Shown here one piece after another: positions 721 to 17,352 of a stretch of 17,352 bases of DNA. Below the pieces are notes generated by a model, which was not told the DNA's origin, did not search any database, and saw only the letters and a program-made list of their open reading frames with translations. The stretch lies in the IMG/VR virus record IMGVR_UViG_2728369554_000022, positions 1-17,352 of that record. One strand, given 5' to 3'. Position 1 is the stretch's first letter, and each line of letters begins with the position of its first letter. The translations under genes were made by a program, and so were the position numbers. This DNA is from a virus (lineage: Duplodnaviria; Heunggongvirae; Uroviricota; Caudoviricetes).

Positions 721-895
721 CTAACGACGTTTACAAGTAATAATCACATACCATTATGTAATACAAAAAAAGCAGCACTGAAACTGTAACCGTTCAGATA
801 TTACAGCATGAAGAAAAACAATAGTACCTACAAAGCTGTTCTCCGCGAAAATTCGCCAGTGCTGATAAAGCTATGCCTCGTTTGTTTTACAGGAG

Positions 896-967
<72 letters not shown>

Positions 968-970
968 ATA

Positions 971-1046
<76 letters not shown>

Positions 1047-1658
1047 GTTGGTTCCTCGGGAGTGAGATGAGATGCCCCGATACATAATGTATCATTCCCT
1101 CGGAACCACAAAAATAATACTAATAAATAATCAGGATGCAATATTTACCAACTATGTAATTGTAAATTTGTTTGAATAAAAAATTACTAAACACGCCATA
1201 TCGCCCCTCTAAAAAAGGGGGGCGTAATAATATAAGTGATACTAAGCATCACATTACTAAATACATTGTATTAAGCTGGCGACCCGATGCGTAATCCCTT
1301 GATATTAAAAACTCCAAACAAAATCAGAATGCCATCTGAATACACAAAAAGCTGGCTTCACACCACCCTGTATGTGAACGCAGAACTCATCACCCCACGC
1401 GCTTTCGCAGCCAGTACACAACCTGTGTCAAACGCTGGCAGATGAACAATGAAACTGCCAGCACGGTCACCTATCTTAGTTCGCGTCTCGTATTCTGCTT
1501 GATAATAAGTTTCCCGTTCTTCTCTTATTGTGCATTTTTCAGTTTATCTGTCAGTAGCATTTTGACATACCAATAATTCCTGTCGAGAAAATCAGTGAGC
1601 TAAAAAACCGTATTCACAGCCTCGGGCACGTTTAACGTACCGCACCACTTTTCGGGCG

Positions 1659-2595: not shown

Positions 2596-3194
2596 TACGC
2601 AAACTCCAGCAGCTGCGCGGCCACATTTTCGACTTGTTCCGGAGAGGAAAATTTACGGAACAGAATCCAGTTCCACAGCACATTCAGAACAGATTTATAA
2701 ACCTGCTGAAACTCGGTTTCGTCCATATTCGCAAAAGCGATGGATTTCGCCCGACGCCCATGGCTACCGTCCGGATAAAAATGTTCGGTGTAAAATCCAG
2801 CCTGAATGGTTACCCACTCGCGAAAAGCCTCAAACGACTTTAGCAATGCCGTATCCCGGGTTCTGCGAGTCGCAACGGTGTTAAGGTATTGCTCTGCAGC
2901 ATCACTAAGGGCTGGCGTATGTTCCCGACCTACTGATTCGCACAGGAAATCAACGAAACCGGACACCAGTTCTCGTTCGCGAGGCGTGATCACCCCACCG
3001 ACCGGAGTCCAGTAATCGAATCCCAGTTGCAGGAGTTTGAAAAAACGCTTGTGGAATGCGTAGTTACGCACACGCTTAAAGTCTGCGTGTATCCACTCAC
3101 CTATTTTGATTTGATGCAAAAAATCGCAACTCTCCGGCGTCGCCGGGAGAAGTAATCCGGAAGAGGTTTGTTTGACCAGTTGTATATGCGCCAT
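2595..3194 (-). CDS. nin-region phage protein of unknown function (possibly DUF1367 family), 199 aa
   Basis: ATG at 3194 with GGAGA upstream; the track's 3206 start is TTG. Family assignment is a recollection only. Confidence 0.45.
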   Translation of the reverse strand: MAHIQLVKQTSSGLLLPATPESCDFLHQIKIGEWIHADFKRVRNYAFHKRFFKLLQLGFDYWTPVGGVITPRERELVSGFVDFLCESVGREHTPALSDAAEQYLNTVATRRTRDTALLKSFEAFREWVTIQAGFYTEHFYPDGSHGRRAKSIAFANMDETEFQQVYKSVLNVLWNWILFRKFSSPEQVENVAAQLLEFA

Positions 3195-3647: not shown

Positions 3648-3803
3648 TTACTCCTCAGGTTCGTAAGCTGTGAAGACAGCGACCTCCGTCTGGCCGGTTC
3701 GGATTCGTACCTCGCAGAGGTCTTTCCTCGTTACCAGTGCCGTCACTATGACGGTTAAACAGATGACGATCAGGACGATTAACATCGCCTTTTGCTGCTT
3801 CAT
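3648..3803 (-). CDS. hokD: Hok/Gef-family type I toxin (51 aa)
   Basis: MKQQKAMLIVLIVICLTVIVTALVTRKDLCEVRIRTGQTEVAVFTAYEPEE, near-identical to recalled HokD/RelF; AAGGAGA upstream of ATG 3803. In-frame upstream ATG at 3860 gives a 70-aa mok-like extension. Confidence 0.8.
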   Translation of the reverse strand: MKQQKAMLIVLIVICLTVIVTALVTRKDLCEVRIRTGQTEVAVFTAYEPEE

Positions 3804-3975
3804 AGCCTGCTTCTCCTTGCCTTTCGGCACGTAAGAGGCTAACCTACATTTGTGAGACATAGATTGGGCCTCAGATTAATGTTAAGCGTCTTGCAGGACG
3901 CGTAATGTTAACTGGGGCTTTTCTCTATCTGCCTTTGGTGTTCATGCCCGAGGCAGATAGCCTCAAGCACCCGCA
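3804..3975. promoter_or_regulatory. hok leader with candidate antisense (Sok-like) region and structured elements
   Basis: Direct repeat TAATGTTAA (3876-3884, 3903-3911) flanking hairpin GCGTC-ttgcag-GACGC; 10-bp stem CTATCTGCCT/AGGCAGATAG at ~3937-3972. Sok promoter not defined. Confidence 0.35.
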
Positions 3976-14868: not shown

Positions 14869-14898
14869 CAACTTGAAATATTTTTTATGAGAAAAATT

Positions 14899-15093
14899 AT
14901 GAGATATGACAATGTTAAACCATGTCCATTTTGTGGTTGTCCATCAGTAACGGTGAAAGCCATTTCAGGATATTACCGAGCGAAGTGTAACGGATGCGAA
15001 TCCCGAACCGGTTATGGTGGAAGTGAAAAAGAAGCACTCGAAAGATGGAATAAACGAACCACTGAAAATATTAATGGAGGCTTTCATGTATAA
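14899..15093 (+). CDS. ralR: RalR/Lar restriction-alleviation protein (64 aa)
   Basis: MRYDNVKPCPFCGCPSVTVKAISGYYRAKCNGCESR..., zinc-ribbon-like, recognised as Rac Lar. Confidence 0.8.
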   Translation: MRYDNVKPCPFCGCPSVTVKAISGYYRAKCNGCESRTGYGGSEKEALERWNKRTTENINGGFHV

Positions 15094-15274
15094 AATTACC
15101 GCTACAATTGAAAAGGAAGGTGGCACTCCTACTAACTGGACAAGATATTCAAAATCTAAACTAACGAAATCGGAATGCGAAAAAATGCTCTCAGGGAAAA
15201 AAGAAGCAGGCGTTTCCAGAGAGCAGAAAGTAAAACTGATAAATTTTAATTGCGAGAAACTTCTGTCATCGTGA
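15086..15274 (+). CDS. ydaC: YdaC-like small protein (62 aa from this start)
   Basis: ATG at 15086 with GGAGG 5 nt upstream, overlapping ralR stop; synteny with Rac ydaC. Confidence 0.55.
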   Translation: MYKITATIEKEGGTPTNWTRYSKSKLTKSECEKMLSGKKEAGVSREQKVKLINFNCEKLLSS

Positions 15275-15380
15275 GTTGCATTATATCCAAATCAGAACTT
15301 CATAGCTGATTATTAAAAATCAACCACACCCGCCAGTATTTTGTATATTTACTGGCGGTCATATCGTAAGAGGTATGGCA

Positions 15381-15662
15381 ATGAATCTTGTGACACTCAA
15401 AACCTGGGGAAGACTCAGATATCCGGATAACCCACCATCAATATCAACGCTGAGACGATGGGCAAGGAATGGAAACATTTATCCTGCACCTGAACTACAC
15501 GGGAGGAGTTACAGGGTGGTTCCGGAGGCTTTCTATATCAACCCAAATAAGGTTGATACCGATATAACACACCACCAGCCTAATGGGCGACAAGGGAGAG
15601 ACAGTCCGTTAATGGAGAAGTTAAAACATGCAGCGGAAAAAATACGATCCCAATTTGCCTAG
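15381..15662 (+). CDS. Excisionase (Xis-like)
   Basis: AAGAGG upstream of ATG 15381; resembles lambda Xis N-terminus; 3' end overlaps int start as in lambda. Confidence 0.7.
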   Translation: MNLVTLKTWGRLRYPDNPPSISTLRRWARNGNIYPAPELHGRSYRVVPEAFYINPNKVDTDITHHQPNGRQGRDSPLMEKLKHAAEKIRSQFA

Positions 15663-16704
15663 AAATTTAACATATCGAAGGAGAGACAAAGCATATTACT
15701 GGCGCAACCCTCTCACGAAAGAAGAATTTACACTAGGTAAAATTTCAAGAAGAGATGCAGTAGCGCAGGCAATTGAAGCAAATCATTATATATACAAAAA
15801 CTACTCTCCTGCTGCCTTAATTGAAAAACTTAAAGGGTTCGACTCATTTACTATGGCAGACTGGATTGAACGTTACAAAACGATTCTTATAAGGAGAAAA
15901 GTGTCCAGAAATACTTATAAAATTCGGGTAAATCAACTGGAGACAATAAAAGAAAAATTAGGAGGGATTTTACTGACAGAAATAACCACTCGCCATATTG
16001 CCGAGTTTCTTGATTTGTGGATTGAAGGAGGGAAAAACACGATGGCAGGATCAATGCGTTCTGTGTTATCTGATATGTTCCGCGAGGCCATTGTTGAAGG
16101 ACGTATATCTCAAAATCCAGTAACGCCAACAAGAGCACCGAAAATAGTAGTTACAAGAGAACGGCTGAAACTAAAGACATACAACTGCATCAGGGAGGCA
16201 GCAGATCAACTTCCGGCATGGTTCCCATTAGCTATGGATTTAGCCCTTGTAACAGGACAACGTCGCGAAGACATAACGAATATGCGGTTCAGTGATATTT
16301 ATGATGATCGTCTCCACATCAGGCAAATTAAGACAGGAATGATGATTGCTATCCCCCTGTCACTCAGCCTTCCTGTCGCTGGTCTACGGCTTGGTACAGT
16401 AGTTGAACGGTGCCGCCTGGTAAGCCGGGGAGATTATCTAATCAGTGCCGGGATTAGAAAAAACAGCCCTGACGGCAGCATTCACCCGGACGGCCTGACA
16501 AAAAAATTTGTCGCAGCCAGAAAATTAACAGGTATCCAGTTCAGTGAAAACCCACCAACTTTTCACGAGATCAGAAGTCTGGCTGGACGATTGTACAAAG
16601 AAACATGTGGAGAAGAATTTGCTCAGCGTCTACTTGGCCACACATCGGAGAAGACAACAAAAATGTATCTTGATGAGAGAGAAAAAACGTACTTACTGCT
16701 CTGA
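15628..16704 (+). CDS. Lambda-family tyrosine integrase (358 aa)
   Basis: Aligns by eye with lambda Int (N-terminal arm-binding region, [25 protein letters not shown], tyrosine in KMYLDE). Confidence 0.9.
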
Positions 16705-16751
16705 TTTTAACGTAAATGGATTGTTAAATGTATTTTGGTTGTGATATAACC

Positions 16752-16853
16752 AAAAAAGACCGAATACGATTCCTGTATTCGGTCCAGGGAAATGGCTCTT
16801 GGGAGAGAGCCGTGCGCTAAAAGTTGGCATTAATGCAGGCTTAGTTGCCTTGC
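16752..16853 (-). ncRNA. sdsR: SdsR (RyeB) sRNA
   Basis: Minus strand reads GCAAGGCAACTAAGCCTGCATTAATGCC...GACCGAATACAGGAATCGTATTCGGTC-TTTTTT, matching recalled SdsR with its terminator; sigma-S-like -10 TCTATTCTTAA just upstream. Confidence 0.8.
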
Positions 16854-16982
16854 TCTTTAAGAATAGATGACGACGCCAGGTTTTCCAGTTTGCGTGCAAA
16901 ATGGTCAATAAAAAGCGTGGTGGTCATCAGCTTAAATGTTAAAAACCGCCCGTTCTGGTGAAAGAACTGAGGCGGTTTTTTA
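16758..16982 (+). ncRNA. ryeA: RyeA (SraC) antisense sRNA candidate overlapping sdsR; 5' end uncertain
   Basis: Known bidirectional sRNA locus; candidate promoter TTGTTA (16721-16726) and TATAAC (16745-16750); terminator at 16941-16982. Confidence 0.35.
16941..16982. terminator. Bidirectional terminator between RyeA and the yebY-like gene
   Basis: ACCGCC-[CGTTCT-ggtgaa-AGAACT]-GAGGCGGT flanked by A-run and T-run. Confidence 0.6.
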
Positions 16983-17010
16983 TTGGAAATCAAAAGGCTA
17001 TTTTAGGTAA

Positions 17011-17352
17011 TTAACAGAGTTTTTCAGCTCGCTCTATAAACGGTGCCAGACTCATTTTTTCGCCGGGATTGTTAGGATCATCAATCTGAATCACCGAAAT
17101 GGGTTGGGCTTTAGTCTTCCCACTGGCAACTTCCTTTTGTGCGATATCGTTTAAAGGATACTGCACGAGGGTACTTGGGTTAATGACATACAAAGCATTA
17201 CCCGGTCGGCAAGTCAACATCACCTCTTCGCGATTAAACGCCCATTTGTCTTTACCCACTTCAAAACGGCTGACGGTAATCACCTGCGGTGCCGCCAGCG
17301 CAGCTGCAGAACTGGTGAGTAACAGAAACGCCAGAATACTTTTTCTCATCAT
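17011..17352 (-). CDS. yebY: YebY-like secreted protein (DUF2511-like), 113 aa; start codon at window edge
   Basis: Signal peptide [20 protein letters not shown]; adjacency to the sdsR/ryeA locus matches recalled pphA-ryeA/ryeB-yebY arrangement. Confidence 0.5.

Follow-up and report, generated by a model that had tools for sequence, protein, structure and literature searches.

Gene content of the prophage end and its host flank

The window, meaning the whole 17,352-nt stretch of DNA analysed here, contains the early-region end of a rac/lambda-like prophage followed by host flank. Gene content was assigned from the ORF list, from Rfam and ARAGORN, and from an annotated homologous locus of E. 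coli. From left to right, the order is a holin fragment, tRNA-Gly, tRNA-Thr, hokD/sok, replication and immunity genes, kilR, recE, recT, ralR/RalA, xis and int, and the features on either side of the prophage end are collected in Table 1. The far prophage end lies outside the window, which shows the int-proximal junction only.

The integrase gene stops at 16704, as had been annotated initially, and its product is a lambda-type tyrosine integrase according to Pfam, with matches to Phage_integrase (PF00589, 61.7 bits), Phage_int_M (PF22022, 40 bits) and Arm-DNA-bind_1 (PF09003, 28 bits against a cut-off of 22). This protein shares 98.6% amino acid identity with Int of the phage record PP818812.1 and 39-41% identity with the integrases of HK022 and HK97. 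The recombination directionality factor, Xis, is encoded next to int and the two reading frames overlap.

SdsR is a core sigma-S-dependent Hfq sRNA, with targets that include ompD, tolC, mutS and yhcB, and RyeA is its antisense antagonist. Both are recognised beyond int. The Rfam model SdsR_RyeB (RF00111) matches 16751-16850 on the minus strand across all 100 model positions, scoring 114.5 bits where the cut-off is 38. On the plus strand, SraC_RyeA (RF00101), a 145-nt model that starts at the sdsR 3' end, matches 16747-16891 with 172 bits (cut-off 37). An intact SdsR with its terminator and a sigma-S-like -10 element had been proposed from the sequence, and Rfam, mapping from K-12, a terminator scan and the RNA fold all agree with this. 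Relative to the K-12 SdsR/RyeA pair, conservation extends to sdsR, to its sigma-S promoter and to the RyeA terminator, and between 16777 and 16981 the window differs from K-12 at three positions: substitutions at 16854 and 16933 and a 1-nt deletion at 16975. K-12 has pphA downstream of sdsR, whereas in the lysogen the two genes are separated by the prophage.

Table 1. Features at and around the int-proximal prophage junction, in window coordinates
Feature	Position	Strand	Basis or detail
xis (excisionase)	15375-15662	+	ORF; Pfam Exc PF07825, E 1e-13; excisionase in homologous C25 annotation
int, lambda-type tyrosine integrase, 358 aa, sdsR-specific	15628-16704	+	ORF; Pfam domains
Phage-derived spacer, int stop to att homology	16705-16751	+	One substitution relative to free-phage attP; holds candidate promoter
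Candidate promoter	16721-16750	+	TTGTTA 16721-26; 18-nt spacer; TG 16742-43; TATAAC 16745-50
sdsR (ryeB), intact	16751-16854	-	Rfam SdsR_RyeB RF00111; mapping from K-12
Deletion scar, one surviving copy of 16-bp direct repeat AAAAAAGACCGAATAC	16752-16767		DR1 at -98 fused to core copy at -13
SdsR terminator hairpin, then T-run	16757-16785	-	Terminator scan
RyeA/SraC-homologous antisense region to RyeA terminator	16757-16981	+	Rfam; K-12 mapping
att core, coinciding with SdsR terminator stem-loop	16758-16784		Half-site GACCGAATAC 16758-67, phage allele; half-site GTATTCGGTC 16775-84, host
7-bp overlap GATTCCT, SdsR terminator loop	16768-16774		att comparison
sdsR -10 element TATTCT, sigma-S promoter	16860-16865	-	Mapped from -10 mutagenesis primer PM_SdsRF in PMC6610125
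RyeA terminator	16941-16981	+	Mapping from K-12
yebY, host flank	17011-17352	-	ORF of 113 aa; annotated yebY in K-12 and C25

The attachment core is the SdsR terminator

Alignment with the prophage-free pphA-yebY region of K-12 showed that similarity starts only at ~16752 (AAAAAAGACCGAATACG...), and that nothing left of this point is related to the K-12 pphA-sdsR spacer. The junction was mapped by comparing attP (PP818812.1 and IMG/VR contigs), attB (K-12), attL (lysogen C25) and int-proximal junctions. Around the exchange point, attP (PP818812.1 and an IMG/VR contig) reads ...AAAAAAAGACCGAATACGATTCCTGT|TTTCGTCAAC... and attB reads ...AAAAAGAGACCGAACACGATTCCTGT|ATTCGGTCCAGG..., and the two lysogen junctions are the reciprocal products: attL beside pphA in C25 consists of the host left half and the phage right half, and the int-proximal junction of the phage left half and the host right half. 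The sole stretch identical in attP, attB, attL and attR is ACGATTCCTGT (16766-16776), with imperfect homology extending from 16752. This comparison places the prophage junction in the sdsR/ryeA locus, as had been proposed. The second att copy that was expected at the far prophage end is present beside pphA in C25; the equivalent end of the prophage studied here lies beyond the window.

The initial annotation had further allowed the att core only the ~45 bp that separate the int stop from sdsR, which is incorrect because the core overlaps the SdsR terminator. A core inside the 45-bp spacer (16705-16751) was rejected: a single substitution separates the spacer from the free-phage attP, and K-12 attB contains nothing equivalent to it. 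Two markers locate the exchange more closely. At both the T/C marker at 16765 and an A/G marker in the A-run, the int-proximal junctions of the window and of C25 carry the phage allele and the C25 attL carries the host allele, which puts the exchange in C25 to the right of 16765. In a small number of other lysogens, both markers are host-type on the int-proximal side.

By analogy with lambda-type attachment sites, we infer that the two arms of the terminator stem are inverted core-type half-sites bound by Int around the 7-bp overlap. Integration into the sdsR terminator would thus use the stem arms as half-sites and the GATTCCT loop as the region of strand exchange.

SdsR is rebuilt and the native RyeA promoter is displaced

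The overlap lies 18-24 nt from the 3' end of sdsR (16751), and the last ~15-24 nt of the gene, comprising the 3' half of the terminator stem and the U-tail (16751 up to 16765-16774), are phage-derived. SdsR is nevertheless rebuilt intact, because the phage brings its own version of the U-tail and of the hairpin's 3' half. The fold retains an 11-bp terminator hairpin that differs from that of K-12 by a U-A pair in place of one G-U pair, and it is followed by an uninterrupted U6 tail in place of UCUCUUUUU.

The situation is different for RyeA. The K-12 ryeA -10 element, read from a mutagenesis primer, is TATGGT at positions 2054-59 of the K-12 locus L001 (Choi et al. 2019, PMC6610125). K-12 RyeA (2067-2338 of L001) has its TSS or processed 5' end at 2067, 53 nt to the left of the core, a position that maps onto phage DNA in the window, at 16713. 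When the window junction was aligned with K-12, neither these first 53 nt of RyeA nor the TATGGT element had a counterpart. In lysogen C25, the pphA-side junction, ~42 kb away, retains the native RyeA promoter and the beginning of RyeA intact, reading into the phage. Since the native promoter and the 5' 53 nt lie beyond the crossover, any RyeA made at the window junction must start in phage DNA. Integration puts a prophage of ~40 kb between sdsR on one side and, on the other, pphA and the initial 53 nt of RyeA together with their sigma-70 promoter. The proposal that integration rewires RyeA expression holds in so far as the native promoter is separated from sdsR, as seen from the far junction of C25 and from the K-12 mapping, and the candidate replacement promoter considered below is plausible only.

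In K-12, pphA is partly expressed through read-through of sdsR and is repressed by ryeA transcription (PMC6610125). Deletion of the sraC promoter altered SdsR only ~1.5-fold in E. coli and Salmonella (PMC3333887), so the regulatory effect of the rewiring is likely to be modest and its physiological effect may be small.

A recent deletion has removed the P' arm

Four attP sequences were compared, from elements with an Int that is 100%, 99%, 74% (the Salmonella prophage ZC-S1_prp, over the matched 72% of the protein) and 51% (Tbat2_3) identical to that of the window, with arm positions given relative to the centre of the overlap. The same arm elements recur at the same distances in all four, including ZC-S1_prp, save for an IHF consensus that is present in three. 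A copy of the core half-site, GACCG(G)AATA, here termed DR1, lies at -98, with the core half-site itself at -13. Between them, tandem candidate arm-type Int sites (AAWTTCGRG) are found at -83, -72 and -62 in the four attPs and in all relatives, and the IHF consensus YAANNNNTTGATW lies at -45. The motif TT[TC]CG[AG][GA] occurs at -72 and -62 and again in the other arm at +122/+143. The arm repeats are all on one strand (P <= 0.0025 per attP in shuffles).

This layout resembles the att sites of lambda and HK022 in several respects. Int has the arm-binding, core-binding and catalytic domains, inverted half-sites surround a 7-bp overlap, the xis frame overlaps int, and intact relatives have the IHF consensus at -45, three repeats ~10 bp apart from -62 to -83 and distal sites at +122/+143. 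The family differs in that Int is only 39-41% identical to its counterparts, the core lies in the terminator hairpin of an sRNA and not in intergenic DNA, DR1, the extra copy of the core half-site at -98, has no lambda counterpart, and the window has lost its entire P' arm. From their position, tandem arrangement and conservation, we infer that the AAWTTCGRG repeats bind Int, while noting that the candidate arm motif is similar to the core half-site ATTCGG as well. The lambda-like P'/P layout, together with the arm-binding domain that Int carries, supports the view that this segment is the functional P' arm.

The window contains none of the three candidate arm sites and no IHF consensus, and the int spacer runs straight into the core (16752-16767). 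Other copies have 84-85 bp more between TATAAC and the core. The nearest relatives (L082-L091) carry two copies of a perfect 16-bp repeat, AAAAAAGACCGAATAC, 84 bp apart, of which the window keeps exactly one. The closest of these, L091, has a single mismatch to the window over 7033 nt and matches the 601-nt host flank perfectly, yet its arm is present. The arm is also kept in all ten assemblies with a RecE identical to that of the window, in all 67 assessable IMG/VR loci, in both GTDB representatives, and among the matches listed for complete E. coli genomes (60-odd of 228), each of which matches in two pieces spanning the 84-85 bp extra. A 42-nt diagnostic megablast for the short junction gave no match in 5426 complete E. 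coli genomes, and an exact-pattern search gave none in GTDB representatives, IMG/VR or JGI metagenomes. As read from these alignments, the missing 84 bp were deleted very recently, through slippage or short-homology recombination between the 16-bp repeats.

An assembly or sequencing artefact, or an aberrant integration at DR1 in which the 84 bp ended up at the opposite prophage end, is an improbable source of the short junction. Its uniqueness among about 300 copies examined fits such an origin, as does the location of the far prophage junction outside the window, but both breakpoints coincide precisely with a perfect 16-bp direct repeat, as is typical of deletion by slippage or over short homology, and repeats spaced 84 bp apart are not of a type that assemblers collapse. 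Aberrant integration in particular is unlikely because DR1 has neither identity to the overlap GATTCCT nor an inverted partner for Int-mediated exchange.

We therefore consider it likely that the region 16705-16985 is the int-proximal junction of a prophage, equivalent to lambda attL (B-O-P') and inserted in the intrinsic terminator of sdsR, whose P' arm has since been deleted and whose capacity for excision has probably been lost. The junction is a truncated lambda-type att junction, a member of the family by descent. Lambda has a heterobivalent Int and a P' arm with H', P'1, P'2 and P'3, and its excision needs P'1, P'2 and H'. Loss of the corresponding arm sites and IHF site would abolish excision here. 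By analogy with lambda, Int/Xis/IHF-mediated excision has probably been lost and the prophage is probably locked in, though int and xis are intact. The same deletion between the 16-bp repeats has brought the candidate promoter beside the core: it lies ~100 bp from the core in all other copies examined and adjoins it in the window only because the intervening 84 bp were deleted.

Source of antisense RNA across sdsR

The promoter-like sequence TTGTTA-18-TATAAC had been annotated at 16721-16750, and it is present there exactly. It had been described as partly phage-derived or att-overlapping; in fact it is phage-derived in its entirety, being present in the free-phage attP of PP818812.1 with a single substitution in the promoter spacer (G16733, which is C in that record), and it lies outside the identical core. 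Against the sigma-70 consensus, TTGTTA matches at 4/6 positions and TATAAC at 5/6, with C at -7, and the latter is preceded by a TG extension. A consensus promoter scan of 16500-17100 returned one site on either strand against 1.1 expected and no consensus-like site on the plus strand; the candidate is not listed because it has no T at -7, and as a match to the motif it does not exceed chance. In a rough weight matrix it scores 7.6, the 99.8th percentile of the window, although ~70 window positions score as high. Its designation as the best candidate RyeA promoter is accurate to the extent that it ties for the best score on the plus strand upstream of sdsR, and is at odds with its absence from the consensus scan. 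The validated K-12 ryeA promoter, TGtTATGGT, obtains the same score of 7.6, so neither the consensus nor the weight matrix can tell the candidate apart from background or from the genuine promoter of K-12.

Antisense transcription across sdsR in the lysogen would start in phage DNA, most likely from the extended -10-like TTGTTA-18-TGaTATAAC just past int, with read-through from int as the alternative. A role for this sequence as the active RyeA promoter in the lysogen, with the phage-supplied replacement resetting RyeA and hence SdsR, is compatible with the junction mapping, and we give it slightly less than an even chance. In its favour, TGaTATAAC is an extended -10 of the same type as the validated K-12 element, and the block TGTTAAA...TGnTATAA is conserved in lineages with a ~75%-identical Int, as TGgTATAAG/C and TGaTATAAC. 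Transcript length provides a further point of comparison. With a start 7 nt past TGaTATAAC, RyeA of a standard lysogen or of S. flexneri is predicted to measure 306 nt, which is 36 nt more than the 270 nt of K-12. The S. flexneri genome concerned carries the same int and phage arm at sdsR, though it may differ from the Shigella strain used for the published northerns. In those northerns, SraC/RyeA of Shigella and Salmonella exceeds that of K-12 by ~35 nt, and a potential -10 was placed ~35 bp further upstream in the same two genera (Frohlich et al. 2012, PMC3333887). The match between the predicted +36 nt and the published ~35 nt for Shigella makes the candidate promoter plausible. Against it stand the C at -7, the 18-nt spacer, the scan result and the many equal scores in the window, and also the absence of the block from the lineage with a 50%-identical Int, in which DR1 directly follows the int stop. 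If the candidate fires in the window itself, the predicted RNA would start at ~16757, have a length of ~225 nt and carry no 5' overhang beyond SdsR.

A consensus-like promoter sequence, TTTGCA-16-TACAAT, within the 84/85-bp arm of standard lysogens, was disfavoured as a source of RyeA, as it would yield an RNA of ~222 nt, shorter than that of K-12, whereas SraC of Shigella is longer. Its hexamers vary among loci, it overlaps the IHF consensus in an A/T-rich tract, and it is gone from the window.

A different reading is that no dedicated RyeA promoter exists in the lysogen, antisense RNA being made only as a 3' extension of the int or xis-int transcript, or not at all, with SdsR freed from RyeA control. 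The lack of a consensus-like plus-strand promoter in 16500-17100 is consistent with this, as is the lack of any plus-strand terminator from the int stop to the RyeA terminator; the minus-strand SdsR terminator alone was found there, and the terminator/hairpin scan gave no second terminator or hairpin in the spacer. The silence of int in a repressed prophage, which is normal for lambdoid prophages, speaks against int read-through as the source. PhiW104 lysogens of Salmonella have lower RyeA and higher RyeB levels (Balbontin et al. 2008, as relayed in PMC7380047), which agrees with a loss of antisense RNA. SraC was, however, clearly detected in Shigella and Salmonella at a defined, longer size (PMC3333887), which argues for a discrete start and against read-through only. 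We regard this reading as doubtful, and the candidate promoter just past int is the more likely source.

A more elaborate version of read-through is highly unlikely. In this version, the int (or xis-int) mRNA would cross sdsR in antisense orientation and end at the RyeA terminator, and its RyeA-like 3' UTR, with perfect complementarity to SdsR, would pair with sigma-S-induced SdsR and be cleaved by RNase III, making the host sRNA a trans-acting counterpart of the lambda sib retroregulator. If so, SdsR would hold Int low in stationary phase, int transcription on induction would deplete SdsR, and the 84-bp deletion would represent a first domestication step that retains the wiring between int and SdsR.

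Prevalence and relationship to known elements

Among 5426 complete E. coli genomes, attB is uninterrupted in 5191, and int is located at sdsR in 228, or about 4%. The carriers include E. coli strains of serotypes O55:H7, O111:H8 and O103:H2 as well as a Shigella flexneri genome. That the ryeA/ryeB locus is an insertion hot spot had been stated in the initial annotation, and the literature bears this out (PMC7380047, PMC3603311, PMC3333887): PMC3603311 includes the sdsR locus among sRNA integration targets, and PMC3333887 names it a contemporary attachment site.

The closest published parallel is PhiW104 of Salmonella enterica DT104, which inserts in the last 23 bp of ryeB, leaves sdsR intact and replaces the 5' part of ryeA and its promoter with phage DNA (Balbontin et al. 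2008, via PMC7380047). The element described here differs in its E. coli host, its rac-like early region (recET, ralR/RalA, kilR) and the loss of its P' arm. Rewiring of RyeA by phage insertion in sdsR/ryeB is already published for Salmonella, and the present locus is an E. coli case whose junction is unusual in being truncated. The full-text literature searched contained no account of the E. coli sdsR element or of its att architecture.

Integration at the 3' ends of tRNA and tmRNA genes is a more general parallel, in that the target is a symmetric stem-loop and the phage restores the 3' part of the gene (Williams 2002, cited in PMC3603311). The target here differs in being an Hfq-dependent sRNA with an overlapping antisense partner and, unlike tRNA integration, insertion therefore has a regulatory side effect, in that sdsR is cut off from pphA and the RyeA promoter is lost.

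These findings leave current concepts unchanged, and their significance lies in more specific points. In carrier strains, the 5' end and promoter of any RyeA would be phage-derived and pphA is uncoupled from sdsR read-through, which is relevant when SdsR/RyeA is compared between strains, and the phage arm at sdsR may explain the published difference in SraC size between K-12 and Shigella. The conserved attP layout provides a usable map of a family of sRNA-targeting integrases, and the deletion of the arm illustrates, in a clean natural case, how prophages may become immobilised. Prophages at the RyeB/SraC site were also noted in Citrobacter and Cronobacter.

An additional core half-site at the edge of the P' arm

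In the integrase family to which the window enzyme belongs, all attP sites, including those whose Int is as little as 50% identical, have an extra core half-site, GACCG(G)AATA (DR1). It lies at -98 from the overlap centre, at the end of the P' arm that is farther from the core. The att site of lambda has no counterpart to this element of the sdsR-targeting integrases. It is the presence of DR1 that made the 84-bp deletion in the window possible, and a fused copy is found there.

Coordinates of att-associated and RNA features
Feature	Sequence	Position	Strand	Remark
DR1	L003 (phage record PP818812.1)	1125-1141		
DR1	L079 (attP-bearing)	~1768		
DR1	L080 (attP-bearing)	~832		
DR1, fused copy	window	16752-16767		
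Inverted repeat	L003	1502-1538		attP distal arm
Variant left flank	L006 (E. coli ECMA0423)	2700-2730		
Variant left flanks	L008, L009, L028, L050 (IMG/VR loci)			
pphA-side junction	L004 (lysogen C25)	42780-42960		
sdsR/ryeA region	L005 (S. flexneri SFBU1023, CP182556.1)	2700-2940		
RalA antitoxin sRNA	window	15092-15270	-	Rfam, 210 bits
ralR (RalR toxin)	window	about 14893-15087	+	
sok antisense RNA	window	3798-3972	-	Rfam, 117.7 bits
tRNA-Gly(UCC)	window	895-967	-	phage-borne
tRNA-Thr(UGU)	window	971-1046	-	phage-borne

Core and flank variation

The 7-bp overlap GATTCCT is invariant in the junctions and attP sites that adjoin an E. coli- or Salmonella-type sdsR, and the phage Tbat2_3 (51% Int identity) has CAATCCT in its place. 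At the int-proximal junction, the 15 bp to the left of the overlap differ between lysogens (AAAAAGAG, GAACCGAACAC, GAGTAC), differences that could represent distinct phage alleles or exchanged strands that were resolved differently.

PP818812.1 is deposited as 'Actinobacillus phage vB_Apl-pPE4' with Actinobacillus pleuropneumoniae as the host. This assignment looks doubtful: its integrase gene is 97.6% identical in nucleotide sequence to that of the window, and its attP core is the sdsR terminator of E. coli/Salmonella. An induced E. coli prophage is the probable source of the record. Its attP distal arm features a perfect 13-bp inverted repeat (AGCTGCGGCACGT/ACGTGCCGCAGCT) approximately 275-310 bp past the core, which lies 3' of int in the free phage only. 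This placement matches that of sib/tI in lambda, and the repeat may equally be the terminator of a convergent tail gene.

The host locus at both junctions

In C25, the K-12-type ryeA promoter is intact at the pphA-side junction and points into the tail-fibre end of the phage, an arrangement that should yield a chimeric antisense transcript of RyeA(1-53) and phage RNA. There, pphA no longer has the sdsR promoter upstream of it.

Substitutions and 1-nt indels are numerous in the sdsR/ryeA region adjoining the same prophage junction in SFBU1023. They affect the promoter and body of sdsR as well as its terminator, and reflect either sequencing errors or, in this Shigella strain, decay of the gene. 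Window position 16854, the annotated first position of sdsR, is A where K-12 has G (RNA sense), and becomes position -1 if numbering follows the start used by Choi et al. 2019 (PMC6610125). The A allele, an unremarkable polymorphism of the promoter/start region of sdsR, is common to C25 and most IMG/VR lysogens read out that far.

Toxin-antitoxin and tRNA genes

Directly upstream of xis, the prophage encodes the RalR toxin and the RalA antitoxin, which in rac-like prophages form a type I toxin-antitoxin pair. A second type I pair of the window prophage comprises sok and hokD; compared with the Rfam consensus, sok contains an insertion of 18 nt in the loop of one of its hairpins. The two tRNA genes are located between the holin and late-regulation genes.
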